Source: a virus (Duplodnaviria; Caudoviricetes). From it: a stretch of DNA of 64,000 nt. The stretch covers positions 32,001 to 96,000 of the IMG/VR virus record IMGVR_UViG_2832410175_000003. The stretch is one strand, 5' to 3'. Position numbers and translations under genes: made by a program. Shown here one piece after another: positions 3,334 to 62,234 of the stretch. How positions within the stretch are numbered: position 1 is the first letter of the stretch; each line of letters begins with the position of its first letter. The notes under the pieces were generated by a model. The model did not search any database and was not told where the DNA came from. It worked only from the letters and a program-made list of their open reading frames with translations.

Positions 3334-3426
3334 TGGCAGAGATGGTTGGATTCGAACCAACGAGCGAGAGCGTTACCTCCCTTGGCGGAGTCAAATTCCG
3401 CTGCCTTACCGCTTGGCCACACCTCT
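3334..3426 (-). tRNA. tRNA-Gln(UUG) with a long variable arm
   Basis: AGAGGTG/CATCTCT-G-CCA; Gln-type D-arm GCCAAGCGGTAAGGC; GCGGA-ATTTGAC-TCCGC; 23-nt variable region. Confidence 0.85.
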
Positions 3427-17402: not shown

Positions 17403-20348
17403 TCAACTTGTCATTTTCTGCTTTTTCTCGATGTTCGCTCGGAGGATCTTCGCAATTTCCTGCATAGTGTGAGGTCGATTTCGTTCTTTGCGACGTTCTT
17501 CTTTTTCTGCTTCGTAGAGCTCTTCGAACACACGGCGTTTTGCCTCATACGCCTCAAATGTATAACCGTACAGCTTTACACTACCTGTCAGGCATTCGGT
17601 CGCGATCTGAATTGGCTCACGGCTCGTCTCGAGCATCTCGTAGAACGAAGAGTTCGCCGTCCCGAACAAAGAATCGAAGAGCAGCTTACTCACGTCTGAA
17701 TTTTCTTCTTTCTCCATGTCACGCAAGATAACATACATAGTAGCCGTATTGCATTTGTATTTTCCAACATATTCAATCAAATCTCGCTTAATTTCCTTGA
17801 TTTCATCCCAGTATGCTTCGTAACGTTCATTGGCATCATGATTATCTCCATCTTTAACAGGAGATGCCAGAGCTCCATAAATGGAAGCTATCTGTCTGCG
17901 AGCATCCCGGACAGCTTCGATGAACTTCCGTGCCAGCTCATACCGCGCTCCGGCCGTACCGACCATTACCGGGTCGATTACATAACTAAAGGGCTTGTTT
18001 GCTTTGTACGAGCCTCTCCAAAACCGGCAGCGGTTGATTGTGTGCTGAACGTAGTCCATCGTGGTTTTGTGAAACAGATAGGCTTTCTTTTCGCTGTCGT
18101 AGTATCCTTTACGGCGAGCCAGCGTCCCGAAGAAGTTCGGTTTAATCGCGCGACCCTTGTCGTCGCGGCGCTCATACTTAGCCTTCAGTCGCTTATACTC
18201 GTCGCGGTTGTTTACCACGAATTCTTTTTTTGCTTTGTCAATTTCCAGGCCACTCATGACATCCAGCATAGACGTGTCATAGTAAATCTCAGCCACATCC
18301 TCAAAAGCCGCGCCGCTGTTGAGCTTATCCCAAAGCAGACTGTTAAGCTCCTGAGAAAGGTTGATAATCTCGCCGATCATATTTTCGCTAGTTTTGATGT
18401 CGAGGTCTGTCTGCTGGGCACTGGTATAAGCACGCTTGGTTTTTTTAGACTCAACCAACGAAGTCGGAACTTTGAAGAGGGAGTAATTCTTCTCAGCCGC
18501 TTTAATCAGCATTGGATCGTCAGTCAACATACATGTGTCCGAGTCAAAATCAGCGCCTGACAATCTTTGTAAAATATTTTCGCCGATAGAATTCAAGCAT
18601 ACGATTTCTTCTGTTAAGTTCATATACCGGCGCACTTCAGGCACATACAGGTTGTCCGCCAGCAAGATATTCCCCTGACACACATGCGGACTGCGCGACC
18701 CCAACAGACGCTGACCTTCATCAAACCGCAGTGACATCACATGACCGGCCGGGATAGACGACTCGCCGTCGAACTGCCCGATAGACGCTTTCAGCATTTC
18801 CAGTGGATTGCCGACCAGAGTCGAATAATTACCGTTGACCAAAACATGTCCGCGACGGATGTTGTTCTGATACGCACGAATCAGCCCGTCTCGGAACTCG
18901 GCATACATCTGCGTCTGTGCGAATCTGTCGTTGATACCCAACAGACGGAAGATAATGTCGTTTCTGGTCAGCAGGGGAGATTTCATCTCACTAGCCGCCG
19001 ACTGCTGTTTCAGATGATAGCGCATAACCGCCGGATTGTTCTTCAGCTGTCGCATGTACTCGATGGACGGCTCGAGGAACTCATCCACCTCTTCCTGCGA
19101 CATCTGCAGAGTATTCAGCAATTGATAATGGGTAGACACCATACGTCCGTCAAAGAAGTGCGTCTTCTTCTCATGCTTTACCACACCGAACATAGGGTCG
19201 GTGCGCTTCAGCCACTCGCGCAGCCGGCCAAACTTCAAATACTTAATGCTGGACGGCGTAGTTATCAGCTTGATGTCCTCTATGGACTTCGCCAACGTGA
19301 ATCCGTTCAGCTGCTCGATTTTCGTAATCCCGTGGTCAGCAAGGAACTGTTGAATGTTCGCGTTGAAGCAGCAGGACTTGAAAAATCGGTTCCGGAGCAG
19401 CAGCATGCCGTACTGCTCGTACTTGGGGCCAAACAGGGACTTGTCCATCAAAGACTGACCGTCCCAGATGCTGTTCGTGATCTCGACGTGCTCGGGGCCA
19501 GACACCAGATGACCGTCTTCACGCACTCTGGTCGCGATAACGTCATCCGTAAACGTGCTCTCAAAATCATCGATTACCAGAAAGTTCTCCGGCCGCACCT
19601 CCAGCGTGTCCACAATAGAGCTTGCCGTCAGCGCGATATAGCTTTCCAGAGCAGCGAGGTCAATCGCCTGTCCCGGCTGCACTTTAATGCCGCACATCTC
19701 CCACTTGTGCATAGCAGGGTAGAGGCGTTCGTCGATGTACAAACATTTGCCGACACGAGAGGAACCGGCCGACCGCTTGTAACGAACATAATGGATGCCG
19801 TCACAATAGAAGCCTTTTTCGTAAAGCTCCTCGCGGATGTCAGCAACACTAACCTCAGTGGCAATGTTAATCTTCGCTTTGTACTGGCCGTCTTCCAGAT
19901 AAAAATACTTGCCGAGTACGGAAGGGGGTAGGGGGTTCTGGACATTCGTGTCACACTGGATGGCAATCAGCTCGCCGTCGACAACATACGCACAGTCATC
20001 CATATTCTCGGCAATCTCATCGTATCGCCAGCCGTTTTTGATGTACAGCGTCTTGCGGATACGATTGAATGCCTTGACGGCGTAATGCGCCGTCACGTTG
20101 ATAACACGGTGGGTGTATTCCTTACCGCCCAGCTCAAAAGAGAAATTCCTGCGGCGGTATACCCGCTCGTAGACATCTCTCAACTTGAGCAGGTCGAGCG
20201 AGTAATCCAGCGTGTTTCTGAATCGCTTCAGATTGAACCCGCCGTCCGAAGACCGGATGTTGTATCCGATCTCGGTTGGACGGTCATAGTGGTTTGCGAG
20301 GTAGACATCCTTGCCGTCCACACTTGGAATGTATACGGCATTCGTCAT
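17403..20348 (-). CDS. yonO: YonO-like single-subunit (RdRP-like double-psi barrel) DNA-dependent RNA polymerase
   Basis: 981 aa; KRSAGSSRVG, IWDGQSL, RSPH and catalytic SGADFDSD (DxDGD-type); upstream of late operon as in SPbeta. Confidence 0.88.
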   Translation of the reverse strand: MTNAVYIPSVDGKDVYLANHYDRPTEIGYNIRSSDGGFNLKRFRNTLDYSLDLLKLRDVYERVYRRRNFSFELGGKEYTHRVINVTAHYAVKAFNRIRKTLYIKNGWRYDEIAENMDDCAYVVDGELIAIQCDTNVQNPLPPSVLGKYFYLEDGQYKAKINIATEVSVADIREELYEKGFYCDGIHYVRYKRSAGSSRVGKCLYIDERLYPAMHKWEMCGIKVQPGQAIDLAALESYIALTASSIVDTLEVRPENFLVIDDFESTFTDDVIATRVREDGHLVSGPEHVEITNSIWDGQSLMDKSLFGPKYEQYGMLLLRNRFFKSCCFNANIQQFLADHGITKIEQLNGFTLAKSIEDIKLITTPSSIKYLKFGRLREWLKRTDPMFGVVKHEKKTHFFDGRMVSTHYQLLNTLQMSQEEVDEFLEPSIEYMRQLKNNPAVMRYHLKQQSAASEMKSPLLTRNDIIFRLLGINDRFAQTQMYAEFRDGLIRAYQNNIRRGHVLVNGNYSTLVGNPLEMLKASIGQFDGESSIPAGHVMSLRFDEGQRLLGSRSPHVCQGNILLADNLYVPEVRRYMNLTEEIVCLNSIGENILQRLSGADFDSDTCMLTDDPMLIKAAEKNYSLFKVPTSLVESKKTKRAYTSAQQTDLDIKTSENMIGEIINLSQELNSLLWDKLNSGAAFEDVAEIYYDTSMLDVMSGLEIDKAKKEFVVNNRDEYKRLKAKYERRDDKGRAIKPNFFGTLARRKGYYDSEKKAYLFHKTTMDYVQHTINRCRFWRGSYKANKPFSYVIDPVMVGTAGARYELARKFIEAVRDARRQIASIYGALASPVKDGDNHDANERYEAYWDEIKEIKRDLIEYVGKYKCNTATMYVILRDMEKEENSDVSKLLFDSLFGTANSSFYEMLETSREPIQIATECLTGSVKLYGYTFEAYEAKRRVFEELYEAEKEERRKERNRPHTMQEIAKILRANIEKKQKMTS

Positions 20349-20569
20349 TCAGTCACCTCGCCACTGTACTCGGCGCGGAGACGATCACGCATAGACAAGT
20401 GCGCGTCAGGGTCGCCCGCTTGGTAGTAACTCATTTCGAGCCAATATTCACTTGGCTCAAGATCTACCTATACAACTGCGTACCCGCAGACATCATCTGC
20501 TGTCATGTTGCAGGAGTTGTAGCGCGAGCAATACTCGCAGTCATCGTGGATGCAGTGGTTTTTCTTCAT
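20345..20569 (-). CDS. Cys-rich small protein with in-frame TAG at codon 34
   Basis: RBS AAAGGAG; MKKNHCIHDDCEYCSRYNSC...YAVV*VDLEPSEYWLEMSYYQ...GEVTE; final TGA overlaps RNAP ATG (ATGA). Confidence 0.6.
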
Positions 20570-20667
20570 TTGGTTTTCTCCTTTTATTGGTTTTCTGGCG
20601 GCAAAAGCGGCCGCCTCGCTCTCCTTATTTGTGTTTGCGTTCATAATATTTTGCACTTCCTTGAAAA

Positions 20668-21738
20668 TTAGTTTTCTGGTTTCTTGCGTCGTTTTTTATA
20701 TTTGCCACGCTTCCGCACCAGAAACAGAGGTTCAAGCTCGGCGGCTATCGCTTTGTTGCCGGTGTAAAATACGCGGGGGTTTAACATAATGCTTCCGACC
20801 GGCAAACCGTGGAACGGTTCTTTCAGCCGGGTCATAATCGTCTCCGTTCCTTTGCTGGTTCGGATGACTTGGTTGTAATAGAGGCTGGTCAACTCTCCGT
20901 AACCGCTTCGCTCATAGCCGCCAGCGGCACAAAGCCGAGCGGCGGTAAGAGGAGCCACCAGAAACGGATCATCCTGAAAGGGGTTCAGACAAAACACGTT
21001 GAAGTCCTTATGCAGATAAGGAAGCATCGGAAGCAGGTATTTCAGCCCCAGACTCATGGACTCAGTCCTATACATCTGTGCGATAGAGGAGAAATACATC
21101 CTCACATACCTGAAACCGCTTTGCTCCGCTTTCGTAGACTCGCGTCGTGTAATCTCACCCCTGCGAAACAGGTCTTGGTTGAACAACCACTCGCCGCGGT
21201 CATTCTGCCAGATGAAGTCTCTCTCTCGGAACGTCCTCAGCATCCCTTGAACAACTGGCGCGGTCAGTTGGAACACCTTTGACAAATAGTTCACGATGTC
21301 CGGCGGATACACATCAGCCGCAATCATCAGGTGCTTATCCGTAGTAGTCAGGAGCATCATCAGCTTTTGCGCCTCGGTTGGTGTGACGTCATAATAGCTC
21401 CCGCCTTCGAGCGGGACGCGTAGCCAGACGAAAGAGCCATAGGCCGGAGTGGCTGTTGAAACATCTCGCTGATAAGGTTTCGCGACTGGATTGGCTCCGA
21501 TATCTCTAATGCGTGCTTCAAAGAAGTCCGGGTCGAGATAACGGATATCCTTTGGCTCAAGTCTCACCTTGGGGTTGTAGTACCGCAGCACCGAGGTCGG
21601 AATATAAGCCCGCTGTCCATTGCCCTCCAGCGTGAAGGGAACAACGGCGGCGAACTCATGTAAATCAGCCCCGGCGTTGGCTATGTCACGCAGGGTCAGC
21701 TCGGCCAACTGCGTTTTTTCTGGCTGGGATTTACCCAT
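20668..21738 (-). CDS. Hypothetical DNA-binding protein (possibly RepL/wHTH-like)
   Basis: 356 aa; C-terminal MLNPRVFYTG and basic tail; family call weak. Confidence 0.6.
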   Translation of the reverse strand: MGKSQPEKTQLAELTLRDIANAGADLHEFAAVVPFTLEGNGQRAYIPTSVLRYYNPKVRLEPKDIRYLDPDFFEARIRDIGANPVAKPYQRDVSTATPAYGSFVWLRVPLEGGSYYDVTPTEAQKLMMLLTTTDKHLMIAADVYPPDIVNYLSKVFQLTAPVVQGMLRTFRERDFIWQNDRGEWLFNQDLFRRGEITRRESTKAEQSGFRYVRMYFSSIAQMYRTESMSLGLKYLLPMLPYLHKDFNVFCLNPFQDDPFLVAPLTAARLCAAGGYERSGYGELTSLYYNQVIRTSKGTETIMTRLKEPFHGLPVGSIMLNPRVFYTGNKAIAAELEPLFLVRKRGKYKKRRKKPEN

Positions 21739-21747
21739 GTTGCTTCC

Positions 21748-21904
21748 CGTCCTTCCAAATCGAACTCGCGTCCTTCCAAATCAAACTCGTCGTCCTTCCA
21801 AATCAAACTCGTCGTCCTTCCAAATCAAACCCTAATCATAAATACACTAATCATAAATACACTAATCATAAATACATAATCAAAAATACTTAATCATAAA
21901 TACA
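21748..21904. repeat. Iteron-like array: 4x ~22-bp CGTCCTTCCAAATCAAACTCGT then 5x 14-15-bp AT-rich TAATCATAAATACA(C)
   Basis: Direct tandem repeats seen in sequence. Confidence 0.9.
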
Positions 21905-21966
21905 TAGGCTGAGCTGGGCAGATTTTGAAAATGCCAGCCAGAGAAATGGAGAAATGGAATCACGCG

Positions 21967-22014
21967 GAATGAGGCTCACTCAGAATGAGGCTCACTCAGA
22001 ATGAGGCTTACTCA
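21967..22014. repeat. 3x 16-bp GAATGAGGCTCACTCA tandem repeat (internal TGAG-N5-CTCA dyad)
   Basis: Seen directly. Confidence 0.9.
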
Positions 22015-22023
22015 AGAGGAGCG

Positions 22024-22404
22024 TCACGCTTCGTCTGAACGATTGGTCGGTATATAAATGCGCGGGGTAGAGAACTGACATTGGCTGTGTCGGCGAATCA
22101 GATGTGCTTCTTCAAGTTCCTTAAATATCTGCAGCGCTTTCTTCTCTCCACAAGAGATGTCGTTCATAACATCTTTGAGAGAGTAATAGATGAATGGCTC
22201 GCCATCTTCGTCAATCCATTCTGGCCGGCTTTTTGATAGCTGCATTCGATAGAGCATGAGAGAATACAGGATCTTCCCAGCCGGAGAGACAGACTTGAGG
22301 TCAGGAGTTACGGGGATAGGGATGAAATCGAATCCGCTGCGGCCATCGTAACTGCGGAACTTCGGGTTATTCTATGTCGTGTGGATAGCTGGTCGTTTTG
22401 CCAT
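22024..22404 (-). CDS. Stand-alone RepA_N-domain protein with in-frame TAG at codon 11
   Basis: RBS GGAGGAGG, ATG 22404; MAKRPAIHTT*NNPK...FIPIP...KSVSPAGKILYSLMLYRMQLS...WIDEDGEPFIYY aligns with the RepA_N at 40863. Confidence 0.75.
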
Positions 22405-22452: not shown

Positions 22453-22481
22453 TACTATACAAAAAAGGCGTTTTTGGGACG
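22453..22481 (-). promoter_or_regulatory. Phage promoter motif CGTCC-N16-GTATAGTA (copy 1)
   Basis: Five intergenic copies with identical spacing. Confidence 0.75.
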
Positions 22482-59851: not shown

Positions 59852-62234
59852 TGTATATCAAGAAAAGCGAATACTCGGCAATGCAGGAAGAACTGAAAAC
59901 CCTTCGTCTGCAGGCGGAGGTAAATAGTGCCTGGACGGAAATGAAGAAGATTGACCCGAAGCCGGGGGAATATGTAATAGTAAAGTTCAAATACGGCCGA
60001 GTTAAATGGGATTCTCTTCAGTTTTTCATGAATAACTGCAAGAAGAAATTCCCGAACAATAAGGTATACGCGATTATCGATGATATGGATATGCAGGTTT
60101 GGGACGCCGGCAGACTGAACGAGTTTATTCGTAAGCTCAGAGAGGATGCAATTTCGAATGGAGCGTTCGATGACTGATAGAGAGCTCGAAAAACGCCTGC
60201 GAGCTATCCGAAAAGAAGGCCGCAAACGCGCAAGACATCGTAGTAGCATCCCATTGCTGACCAGACTGCGGCTGAATCTTCTCTTCTGGCTGTATATGGC
60301 GTGCCCGTATGGGTGGACAAACACCAGAGAGAGAATCAATAATCGCTGGACTGCGATATATCAGTAGAAGTTATAAACGAAAATAGAAAGGGAAATAGCG
60401 AGTGACTTGTGTTGCGTTTTGCCCGCAATGCGGGAAAAGTGTTTCGTATGACAAAGTGATAAGACCACAATGGGTGACAATCAAAGGAATAACTTTTTCT
60501 TATAATGAAAGACTTGCGCTCTGTCCAGAATGCAGAGAAGAGGTTTATGTTGCCGCAGTCAGTGATTTGAATGTGAGAACCCGAGAGCAAGCATATTTTC
60601 GAGCTTTAGAATCTTCCCGGACAAAGAAATGAGGTTTTTATATGGACTTTTCTGAGCGATTCCCTGACATGAAAGTCGGAGAAGCAAAGCACACACTTCT
60701 CAAGCATCAGATCAGCTTGCCATGCTGTATCTGTGGGAAGAAAACTCCATTCTCCGATCTCCGTTTTGGGCGACGATTTTGCAGTTCAGACTGCTTCAAC
60801 ATATTTTACGACGAGGTATACGAATGAGAAAAGTTTTTGTTGCCGCTATGATTATTTGCTTATTCTTGGTGACATTAACTGGCTGTTCGGTTACGGTGCG
60901 AGAGTCATCTGAAAATCCAGATGCCATCTCGACTACTGGACTTAGATCAAGCCAAGGAAGCGGAACGTTTTGTGATATCTGCGGTAAAGAGTTGAGTAAC
61001 CGAGAACGCGGCGAAAAATATCAGATTACGTTCTTCAGTGGGCGTATCGTGGAGGAGACATACAACTTAGTATGTCCAGATTGTGCAGACAACATTGAAG
61101 CATACATTGAACAATTAGGGAGTGAACAATAATGACCAGAGTATTTTGTGATATCTGTGGGAAAGAAATTTACCATGGATTGACGAAACCGCTATATGAG
61201 GTCAGTGTAAGTGCTGTGGGCGGATCTCTATCCAAGGAAGAAAGAGTGTATGTTCATGAGGAAGTTTGTTCTGAATGTGCAAAAGCCATCGAGTCTCATA
61301 TAAAAGAAATGGCCGGATCAATATCAACTAAGTTTCGATAACACAAAAGGTTAATTTGGAGTGACTCACAATGGGTGAAGCAAAACGAAAGCCCCGTCCA
61401 TCGGTTCCGCACTATGTCTGGTTCGACCGTGACGACTGCTGGTTTTGCAAGAACCCAAACAACTGCAACCAGTGCAAAGCAAATCGCAAATGGTTAAAAG
61501 AGAACGTGCCGAAGAAAGAGAAAGGGTATCACACTTGATTATAATGTTCAGAATTTTTCTATGCCTTATCGGTGTCGCTCTGTTCTTTGCAGGAATTCAT
61601 CTCGTGGGAGATTCAGATGTTGAATGGCTGCTCGGGGAAAATGACAACAAAGCGCTTCTGAAACAGGCTATTGGACAGTTTTGTGTGATTGGCAGCATCT
61701 TAATTCTTGCAGTATTGGGGTGGACATGCGGATGACAAAAGGCACATACACGCGCGATTTCTACATTCTGCCGACCATCTTGTTCCATAACGGTGAATGT
61801 TACGTTAGCATTGAACTGGCATGGCTTAAATGGTATATCGGCATTGTTTTAATGGAGGACGACTAATGAATCGCACGACTGTTAACATCTCGGATTTGAG
61901 CCCCAAAGCACAGGAGCTTTACCACAAGATTATGAGAGGCGAATATCTCACAGAACAGAGCGAAGACATTCCTCTGCCGATGCGCCGCTATTTTTGTCAG
62001 GCGCTCCATCTGGTTCGTGGATGGTTTGAAAGTCATCAAGATCAGCTGAAGCGGTACTGTATGAACAACACAGCCGGAACAATCGCCATCCTAAAGGAGA
62101 TGGAGAAAACCCCGGACGAGTTGATGAAGGGCGACTTCGCGGAGTTTCCAGTGCCGGAACCGTTTAACACAAAGTTCAATAAGATAGCAAAGAAAATGCG
62201 AGAAAAACTCGCAAAAAGAGAAAAGAGTGATTAA
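59851..62234 (+). other. Run of ~10 small hypothetical CDSs (Zn ribbons, lipoprotein, membrane proteins)
   Basis: Co-oriented coupled ORFs. Confidence 0.7.

Follow-up and report, generated by a model that had tools for sequence, protein, structure and literature searches.

Two amber codons lying 1.9 kb apart in a single operon of a large prophage, one of them interrupting a stand-alone RepA_N domain gene and the other a small Cys-rich protein gene, are probably translated rather than terminating, in a manner dependent on a suppressor tRNA, while the genome otherwise adheres to code 11 and its lineage seems to sit at the minimal end of TAG-to-Gln recoding. The window analyzed is a stretch of 64,000 nt, i.e., positions 32,001-96,000 of the 175 kb record IMGVR_UViG_2832410175_000003, and the features discussed below, including the small Cys-rich gene (gene (a)) and the stand-alone RepA_N N-terminal domain gene (gene (b)), are collected in Table 1. 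The phage is a large prophage of a cultured human-gut isolate representing a Clostridia-type host, and as the record turned out to be identical to the NCBI isolate assembly GCA_003474415.1 across the 6.3 kb compared, neither of the two TAGs is a metagenome artefact.

Table 1. Features of the window relevant to the two interrupted genes, their promoter motif and the phage tRNAs (positions as counted from the first nucleotide of the window).
Feature	Position	Strand	Remarks
tRNA-Gln(UUG), 93 nt, long variable arm	3334..3426	-	architecture as in the 90-94-nt tRNA(CUA) of relatives
YonO-like single-subunit RNAP, 981 aa	17403..20348	-	phrog_8308; weak PF05183; SGADFDSD motif; own SD GAGGTG
Gene (a), small Cys-rich protein, 74 codons	20345..20569	-	TAG = codon 34 (20470-20468); directly upstream of the RNAP gene
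356-aa protein, family unassigned (phrog_9501)	20668..21738	-	Atlas feature search: lead to RepL-like winged-helix replication proteins
Iteron-like direct repeats, three arrays	21748..22023	.	22 nt x4, ~15 nt x5, 16 nt x4; between gene (b) and the next gene
Gene (b), stand-alone RepA_N N-terminal domain, 126 codons	22024..22404	-	TAG = codon 11 (22374-22372); SD GGAGGAGG
Promoter/operator-like motif, 28 nt	22454..22481	-	CGTCCCAAAAACGCCTTTTTTGTATAGT, extended -10 TGTATAGT; upstream of gene (b)
repA, full-length RepA_N replication protein	40863..41831	+	among the very few genes with a terminal TAG
Second motif copy	45834..45861	+	AAAATCGCGATTTT (palindromic); precedes the sigma-factor gene and tRNA cluster
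Phage ECF-like sigma factor	45981..46502	+	PF04542, PF08281; tRNA cluster within 30 nt
tRNA-Gly(CCC), tRNA-Met(CAT), tRNA-Lys(TTT)	46532..46888	+	tRNA cluster
Putative amber-suppressor tRNA, variant "allele B"	47087..47161	+	76 nt; CUA in 8-nt loop UUUCUAAC
Third motif copy	63543..63570	+	upstream of an RNA-ligase-family gene (63620 onward)

TAG is almost abandoned as a terminator in this lineage. A crude gene call of the whole genome yielded 118 TAA, 73 TGA and 5 TAG stops, the corresponding counts for the window being 48, 37 and 2 (with codon 34 of gene (a) making up one of these two TAGs), and a TAG stop was seen for 3 of the 162 genes called in the first 141 kb, one of the three again being the TAG of gene (a). 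These counts bear out what an earlier note on this DNA had claimed, namely, that TAG is nearly unused as a stop, with repA and an ORF ending at 60367 as the exceptions; the terminal TAG of the former sits in a TAGGAG serving as the SD of the next gene (its read-through would add four codons and end in an ATGA), and the latter (60146-60367) ends with CAG TAG AAG TTA TAA. Treating TAG as a sense codon (code 15 instead of code 11) raised the whole-genome coding coverage from 80.7% to 81.2%, and wholesale code 15 was rejected for this genome, as was the recoding of TGA or TAA, given that the gain for TAG was just 0.5% and that only two genes were interrupted, which agrees with the sparse read-through proposed previously. 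The TAGs of genes (a) and (b) are the only credible in-frame ones in the 175 kb (2 of ~200 genes), and 13 other apparent cases were discarded as TAGGAGG SD sites preceding true starts, C-terminal extensions or frames antisense to genes. The phage was also searched for a release-factor gene or another aid against the host RF1, and none was found.

For gene (b), the layout described earlier (an SD, TAG at codon 11, and RepA_N similarity setting in between this TAG and the next possible start) was confirmed. The first ATG, GTG or TTG found in frame past the TAG is codon 50; the PHROG matches begin at aa 23-24, the Pfam RepA_N match (PF06970, E 1.3e-14, above the curated cut-off) spans aa 37-97, and the alignment to the solved RepA N-terminal domains (E 1.3e-9 for PDB 4PTA) starts from aa 32-33, which correspond to chain residue 25 (an offset of 7-8 residues), so that a start at M50 would cost ~42 residues of the domain. 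The ORF stops at 126 aa and is, thus, without the C-terminal host-factor-recruiting domain of RepA_N initiators. With 46 of the 126 codons varying, the TAG was invariant in nine distinct DNA alleles, as well as in both of the two further alleles checked, and it was never swapped for CAG or CAA in the alleles whose DNA was read, a dS of 0.4-0.5 notwithstanding. An additional 10 clusters of 126-aa proteins show a "Q" at residue 11, which in database proteins is a product of gene callers applying code 15; the DNA was read for two of them, both having TAG. Purifying selection past the TAG is indicated by a dN/dS of 0.16-0.36 for codons 12-49 (0-0.19 for codons 1-10, dS being up to 0.5), and the variable sites within codons 12-49 were distributed over codon positions 3, 1 and 2 as 14:6:1.

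The arrangement of gene (a) was likewise as reported: the TAG is followed by 40 further open codons up to a TGA (20347-20345) that overlaps the RNAP ATG at 20348 (ATGA), and a 9-bp hairpin begins ~10 nt past the TAG. Both the TAG and the open frame are retained in 10 close IMG/VR contigs, a more diverged lineage (L009/L061) has the TAG of its homolog four codons further on, at codon 38, and an uninterrupted homolog of 64 aa is encoded by L010, L013 and L017. Residues invariant in the protein are found on both sides of the TAG (C11, C14 and C20 before it; W43, S47, Y48, P54 and R63 after it), and the full-length product is a small 4-Cys protein, the AlphaFold model of which showed no confident fold (pLDDT 43). 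No ortholog with a sense codon aligned to the TAG of either gene was found.

If both TAGs did terminate, the genes would be split or truncated, gene (a) giving a Cys peptide of 33 aa, alone or alongside a C-terminal one separately started from M46, and gene (b) a 10-aa leader together with a product starting either from M50 or from an ATC (as in the 99-aa NCBI annotation). The standard code and RF1 of the host, the 77-99-aa products annotated by NCBI and other callers, and a tRNA that, in this particular genome, may read UAG poorly are all in line with such an outcome, which is, nevertheless, improbable, as no SD was seen before M46 or M50, the conserved W43 and codons 12-49, being under purifying selection, are located upstream of those starts, a good part of the solved RepA domain would be lost, and uninterrupted homologs of gene (a) exist. 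It is scarcely credible that the stops are private nonsense mutations, sequencing errors or marks of decaying pseudogenes, an eventuality that the earlier note had itself raised (together with sense codons in all of the homologs); nothing beyond the stops being present speaks for it, and the same TAGs recur across many independent contigs as well as in the isolate assembly (kept in 8-10 close contigs and in both of the further alleles checked), with the frames intact and dN/dS low. The comparison of relatives rather supports the view that both TAGs must be read through for the conserved proteins to be made.

The UAG-reading tRNA would be supplied by the phage itself, from the tRNA cluster that follows the phage sigma-factor gene. 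The claim that a phage CUA tRNA accompanies the TAG genes stands, since seven close contigs having the same TAGs carry, at the same locus, a canonical Gln-like 94-nt tRNA(CUA) with a normal 7-nt loop. The tRNA(CUA) of relatives has a D arm of Gln-like appearance and a long variable arm; the tRNA-Gln(UUG) of the window shares this architecture and is the likely source of the suppressor. As to the copy found in this genome at 47087, which had been described as able to present CUA, the CUA is indeed there, but the arm is non-canonical: ARAGORN depicts an 8-nt loop with the anticodon "tcta" (the "Pyl" label that it assigns rests on the anticodon only), and cmscan, using another register, arrives at a forced UCU loop of 7 nt at the price of a bulge and a C x C mismatch. 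This tRNA, furthermore, has a C30xC40 mismatch, an acceptor stem GGGGGAG/CUUCUCC with G3:U70 and A73, and no encoded CCA, and the expanded-loop (or bulged) variant was found in this genome and in L073. The suppressor of this genome is, in other words, a rare allele whose loop is expanded and whose acceptor stem is of the Ala type, and the residue that it inserts may, therefore, be Ala, not Gln. Laboratory tRNAs sharing U33.5-CUA, G31-C39 and a non-Watson-Crick 30-40 pair read triplet UAG ~20-fold worse than their parent (PMC4764823), and read-through with the tRNA allele of this genome may be weak. Its non-canonical structure (8-nt loop, C x C mismatch) is a point against read-through in this particular genome.

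The loop U33-U33.5-CUA-A37, together with the G31-C39 pair and the C30xC40 mismatch, mirrors the laboratory-evolved UAGN decoders, and both of the sites in question are UAGG or UAGA, which brings up the idea of a natural quadruplet (+1 frameshift) decoding of UAGN by this tRNA, with TAGG/TAGA being read as four bases. This is very unlikely, as the +1 frame is closed by a stop within 1-21 codons of either TAG and it is frame 0 that encodes the conserved protein, a genome-wide scan revealed no TAGN site joining two coding frames, and the seven relatives sharing the TAGs have a normal 7-nt loop. One candidate for quadruplet decoding, a TAGC in a PAPS-reductase-like gene (genome position ~98,326, outside the window), was dismissed as an extra C in a C8 run; P0006, an intact homolog of 98% identity, reads TFAIS in the +1 frame before the TAG.

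One part of the earlier note that found no support is the gating of the RNAP by ATGA coupling and the hairpin. The RNAP gene (phrog_8308, E 2.5e-98; PF05183 at 22.4 bits, under the cut-off of 23.8; ADFDSD motif seen) has an SD of its own at a distance of 5 nt from the ATG, and conservation is lacking for the overlap and the hairpin alike: in L009/L061, the TGA is found 10 nt upstream of the RNAP start, and the hairpin is broken by an in-frame 3-nt deletion 3' of the TAG in L001/L005 and absent from both L009/L061 and gene (b), and it was, accordingly, rejected as a read-through signal of the conserved 3' RNA structure kind. A literature search for YonO combined with suppressor tRNAs found no paper.

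The promoter motif noticed before gene (b), on the other hand, is real, being a 28-nt element that occurs in exactly three copies in the 175 kb and in none of the shuffles; a terminator-like hairpin is located just upstream of the gene (b) copy, and neither the sigma-tRNA unit nor the TAG-gene unit showed a strong internal terminator. As the sigma-tRNA and TAG-gene operons carry the same 28-nt promoter/operator, they look co-regulated and not sequential, which goes against a later, "middle-phase" tRNA timing the expression. In full length, gene (b) would give an iteron-binding RepA_N domain standing by itself, and gene (a) a small 4-Cys protein whose gene directly precedes that of the YonO-like RNAP. 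Because both operons have the same operator-bearing promoter, we infer that neither protein would be finished until the sigma-tRNA operon, once derepressed, has provided the suppressor, and this dependence would amount to a second lock, or a short delay, for functions in replication and transcription.

The sister lineage (G005/G004), whose RNAP is 91% identical and which has a canonical 90-nt tRNA(CUA), carries TAG within terminase, tail, RNR, ThyX and RNAP genes; for G005, 27 false TAG stops and ~40 (or more) genes with a mid-gene TAG were counted, and this genome has Gln aligned at 14 of 25 TAG sites. Judged by these features, the sister lineage is fully recoded (TAG to Gln). The outgroup G007, in turn, is without tRNA(CUA), has the small protein uninterrupted and uses TAG as a stop in 4 of 158 cases. 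The three lineages, thus, range from few TAG stops and no suppressor in the outgroup, through a suppressor and two TAGs in this lineage, to TAG in ~40+ genes of the sister, and this lineage probably represents a minimal (incipient or relict) code 15. Outgroups G007 and G009 were uninformative on whether TAG was gained or lost, the TAG sites being at variable positions. With the sister being fully recoded, a switch built for the purpose is no more likely than a "minimal stage of code 15".

It is quite possible, if short of probable, that the recoding is neutral, with the TAGs being read via the phage suppressor, having no regulatory role, and being either the first ones to have drifted in once the suppressor had been gained or what remains from a retreat of code 15. 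A fully recoded sister next to an outgroup that is not fits the route laid out in bioRxiv 10.1101/2021.08.26.457843, and both TAGs occupy variable, tolerant, poorly conserved linker or tail positions; the TAG sites of G005 are at variable positions too. What seems less expected for neutral recoding is that there are only two TAGs, both in one operon under an operator-bearing promoter common to the tRNA operon, that the small protein is interrupted by a TAG in each of the two sister lineages, though not at the same position, and that the gene (b) TAG showed no exchange for a Gln codon at such a dS; none of these points is statistically decisive. At the other extreme, one might think of a two-key lock maintained by selection in a temperate phage, making leaky lysogen transcription harmless, combined with a natural Ala-accepting expanded-loop UAG(N) tRNA, whereby the same codons would be Gln in some strains and Ala in others; this is unlikely. 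Were such a lock true, completion of the replication-origin binder and of an RNAP-associated protein would have to await the firing of the operator-controlled sigma-tRNA operon.

Suppressor-dependent translation of two TAGs at the minimal end of recoding would place three states side by side within one family: TAG-poor without a suppressor, a suppressor with two conserved TAGs, and full TAG = Gln. Phage recoding is known, but its onset has been inferred mostly from comparative statistics. The middle state is found here in the prophage of a gut isolate available in culture, which makes it directly testable, and it provides a concrete case for testing if functions in replication and transcription are switched by single amber codons. 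The two tRNA alleles at one locus (Gln-type, and Ala-type with an 8-nt loop) amount to a natural experiment in suppressor identity. In the NCBI annotation of the assembly, meanwhile, one of the TAG genes is shortened (to 99 aa) and the other is uncalled.

Code 15 gut phages with phage Sup-CTA tRNAs have been described (Borges et al., bioRxiv 10.1101/2021.08.26.457843; phAss-1 group, PMC10607447; crAss-like phages, PMC9523058), and the sister lineage is an ordinary member of these. What the phage studied here has in common with them is that conserved genes contain in-frame TAG, that TAG is rare as a terminator and that the host uses the standard code, a tRNA(CUA) of Gln type being present in its close relatives; what sets it apart is a normal code-11 coding density with so few genes carrying TAG, the placement of those TAGs in a replication/transcription operon and not in structural or lysis genes, a GC content of 49%, for which the low-GC route to TAG loss is not obviously applicable, its being a prophage of a cultured isolate, and its own Ala-type, expanded-loop tRNA allele. 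It also resembles the standard-code, suppressor-bearing relatives of recoded phages of Borges et al., for which a depleted stop and an acquired suppressor were proposed as the first steps to recoding; in the portion of that preprint dealing with them, however, these relatives are mentioned for TGA suppressors, with nothing on conserved in-frame stops, whereas two TAGs are fixed and conserved here. The likeness of the 47087 tRNA to laboratory UAGN-decoding tRNAs (Wang et al. 2016, PMC4764823) consists of the 8-nt loop with U33.5-CUA, the G31-C39 closing pair and the non-Watson-Crick 30-40 pair and may be coincidental, as those are engineered Pyl tRNAs selected on reporters, and no gene here needs a +1 shift at UAGN. 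Finally, as in cis-signalled read-through (MuLV gag-pol, Q-beta A1), a protein would be completed by reading past a stop; unlike in those systems, no conserved downstream structure was found here, and the dependence would be on a trans-acting phage tRNA.

Within the 175-kb genome there are exactly two in-frame TAG sites, as all other apparent ones proved to be Shine-Dalgarno sites (TAGGAGG), short extensions of a C-terminus or frames on the antisense strand. Both interrupt otherwise open genes, one encoding a small Cys-rich protein directly upstream of the RNA polymerase gene (gene (a)) and the other a stand-alone RepA_N N-terminal domain (gene (b)), with the predicted junctions reading ...GYAVV-X-VDLEPSEYWLEMSYYQAGDPDAHLSMR and ...RPAIHTT-X-NNPK (X = residue at the TAG). 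In a crude codon-usage gene call of the whole genome, TAA, TGA and TAG ended 118, 73 and 5 genes, respectively; treating TAG as sense added only 0.5% to the coding coverage, which bears out the earlier note's reading of sparse read-through instead of wholesale code 15 (TAG to Gln), and the call became worse when TGA or TAA was treated as sense. Judging from comparative sequence data, it is quite probable that the two amber codons are translated in a suppressor-dependent manner.

Coordinates of the features discussed (window positions unless marked "genome")
Feature	Position	Strand	Remarks
Gene (a)	20569->20345	-	TAG at codon 34, then 40 open codons
Gene (b)	22404->22024	-	TAG at codon 11; SD GGAGGAGG
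Three adjacent iteron-like direct-repeat arrays	21748-22023		Between gene (b) and a possibly RepL-like gene
RNA polymerase, 981 aa	17403-20348	-	phrog_8308 match, E 2.5e-98
tRNA-Gln(UUG), 93 nt	3334-3426	-	Long variable arm, unusual for a Gln tRNA
CUA-bearing tRNA	47087-47161	+	ARAGORN: 8-nt loop UUUCUAAC
Conserved stretch	47024-47082		Separates tRNA-Lys from the suppressor tRNA
Unique stretch, ~520 nt	47175-47692		Directly after the CUA-bearing tRNA; unique versus L073 and G001
28-nt motif, copy 1	22454-22481		Before gene (b)
28-nt motif, copy 2	45834-45861		Before the sigma-factor gene
28-nt motif, copy 3	63543-63570		Before the RNA-ligase gene
PAPS-reductase-family gene	genome 97786-98821 (L137:786-1821)		Outside the window

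In gene (b), residues 32-108 align to residues 25-100 of solved RepA N-terminal domains (4PTA, 4PQL, 4PT7, 5KBJ), so that the ATG at 22404 is the correct N-terminus. The first in-frame ATG, GTG or TTG after the TAG is codon 50, well downstream of where RepA_N similarity begins, and a start at M50 would cost the domain ~42 residues, in agreement with the earlier claim that the domain needs read-through. Across nine distinct DNA alleles (the window and eight close loci, drawn from 66 IMG/VR loci retrieved via the RNA polymerase), 46 of 126 codons vary and dS reaches 0.5, while the TAG is invariant; variable sites in codons 12-49 fall 14:6:1 at codon positions 3:1:2, and dN/dS is 0.16-0.36 there, 0-0.19 in the ten-codon stretch that precedes the TAG, and 0.03-0.10 in the remainder. 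Ten further 126-aa protein clusters show "Q" at residue 11, and in both of those checked at the DNA level the codon is TAG, the "Q" having come from a gene caller that applied code 15; in one cluster an in-frame deletion has removed 4 residues from the leader upstream of the TAG.

For gene (a), the TAG and its open frame are kept in all ten close loci (RNA polymerase 94-99% identical), two of which have an in-frame 3-nt deletion downstream of the TAG. In the diverged L009/L061 lineage the TAG is codon 38, with the conserved Trp five residues on, versus nine, and in the L010/L013/L017 lineage the homolog is a 64-aa protein without an internal stop; C11, C14, C20, W43, S47, Y48, P54 and R63, which flank the TAG on both sides, are invariant in all three lineages. 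Private nonsense mutations or sequencing errors, the alternatives named in the earlier note, are thus contradicted by the conserved TAGs, intact frames, low dN/dS and an identical stretch in an NCBI assembly (GCA_003474415.1, contig QUDG01000001.1, 709,573 bp; 6.3 kb around both genes compared). This identity also makes the element, a 175,415-bp record whose bases 32001-96000 form the window and which IMG/VR classes as a provirus, a prophage in an NCBI assembly and more than a metagenomic contig. In the NCBI annotation of locus L154 (same DNA), the RepA_N gene is given as a 99-aa product with a non-ATG start, and the small Cys-rich gene is not called.

The tRNA to which read-through had been ascribed does have CUA in its loop, but its arm is non-canonical (an 8-nt loop or, according to cmscan, a stem with a bulge and a C x C mismatch). 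In seven close relatives the same place, downstream of tRNA-Gly, -Met and -Lys, is occupied by a canonical tRNA of 94 nt, whose loop, UUCUAAC, presents the anticodon CUA and which has a variable arm that is long, a mismatch at A1xC72 and G73-CCA; its counterpart in the L009/L061 contigs is 90 nt long. Since the phage's own tRNA-Gln(UUG) has the same architecture as these 90- and 94-nt forms, the latter are probably Gln-type suppressors. The window's allele was found in one other contig, L073, where the downstream DNA differs, and a mosaic junction coincides with the 3' end of the tRNA. Its acceptor stem (GGGGGAG/CUUCUCC, A73, G3:U70) equals that of the phage tRNA-Ala(GGC) save for pair 6-67, and G3:U70 belongs to the alanine identity set recognized by AlaRS. 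In its loop (U33.5-CUA), its G31-C39 pair and its C30xC40 mismatch, the allele agrees with UAGN decoders evolved in the laboratory, whose reading of plain UAG is ~20-fold poorer (PMC4764823). A scan of the genome found no gene requiring a +1 shift at TAGN, the sole candidate being a homopolymer frameshift. This candidate, a gene of the PAPS-reductase family, loses its frame in a tract of 8 C, its intact 344-aa homolog (P0006) being 98% identical; the break reflects either an error in sequencing, phase variation of the tract or a genuine frameshift. Among relatives, ARAGORN also reports a tRNA with a 2-base "anticodon" (aa) and an expanded-loop tRNA with a 4-base one (gaga) (G001:30731-30803, G005:98010-98082; L079:690-766).

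The 28-nt motif CGTCCCAAAA[A/T]CGCNNTTTTTGTATAGT, which includes an extended -10 (TGTATAGT) and, in two of its three copies, the palindrome AAAATCGCGATTTT, is found at three places in the 175-kb genome and nowhere else, and one of the genes it precedes, that of the sigma factor, heads the tRNA cluster. Because the motif is common to both units and no strong terminator was found from gene (b) to the RNA polymerase gene or from the sigma gene to the tRNAs, the tRNA and its two target genes look co-regulated, which argues against the separate later phase proposed for the tRNA; a brief delay or a fail-safe lock would still fit. The motif likely marks a repressor-controlled regulon (the RepA_N-RNA polymerase operon, sigma factor with tRNAs, and RNA ligase), the units of the tRNA and its two targets probably being operator-controlled lytic units of the prophage. 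Gene (b), the iteron-like arrays and the downstream gene for a 356-aa protein (a weak lead to RepL) look like a replication-origin module, with the arrays as a candidate second origin. Gating of the RNA polymerase, as envisaged from the gene (a) TGA overlapping the polymerase ATG and the hairpin 3' of the TAG, is not supported, since the polymerase gene has its own SD and neither overlap nor hairpin is conserved; a switch role of the two TAGs is possible.

The polymerase itself is YonO-like, given its phrog_8308 match, a Pfam RdRP match scoring slightly under the cut-off and an SGADFDSD motif; its relatives reside in Clostridia genomes (including Lachnospiraceae, Christensenella and Roseburia). 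Named phages are related only distantly. Several relatives (L005, L008, L009 and L061, where the match to its gene spans 3.5-4.3 kb versus 2.9 kb; G005:49709-50386) have the gene split by an insertion coding an HNH/NUMOD-like homing endonuclease, probably an intron, which is not present in the window's gene.

G001 (RNA polymerase 99% identical) has the window's two TAG sites and no others. The sister-lineage contig G005 (polymerase 91% identical; 93 ortholog pairs, median identity 77%) is fully recoded: code 11 yields 27 "TAG stops", and TAG as sense places mid-gene TAGs in ~40 genes, including those for terminase, tail, RNR, ThyX, DNA polymerase and RNA polymerase, opposite Q of the present genome at 14 of 25 sites and K, the next, at 5. 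In the outgroup G007 (55%), the small protein is intact, TAG makes up 4 of 158 stops and no tRNA(CUA) was found. The window's lineage may be either gaining or losing TAGs. The two-TAG system is phage TAG recoding of the known kind in a minimal form, and the family displays, here at 49% GC, the same sequence of states as the order proposed by Borges et al. (bioRxiv 10.1101/2021.08.26.457843), in which the stop codon is first depleted, a suppressor is next acquired and in-frame stops follow.
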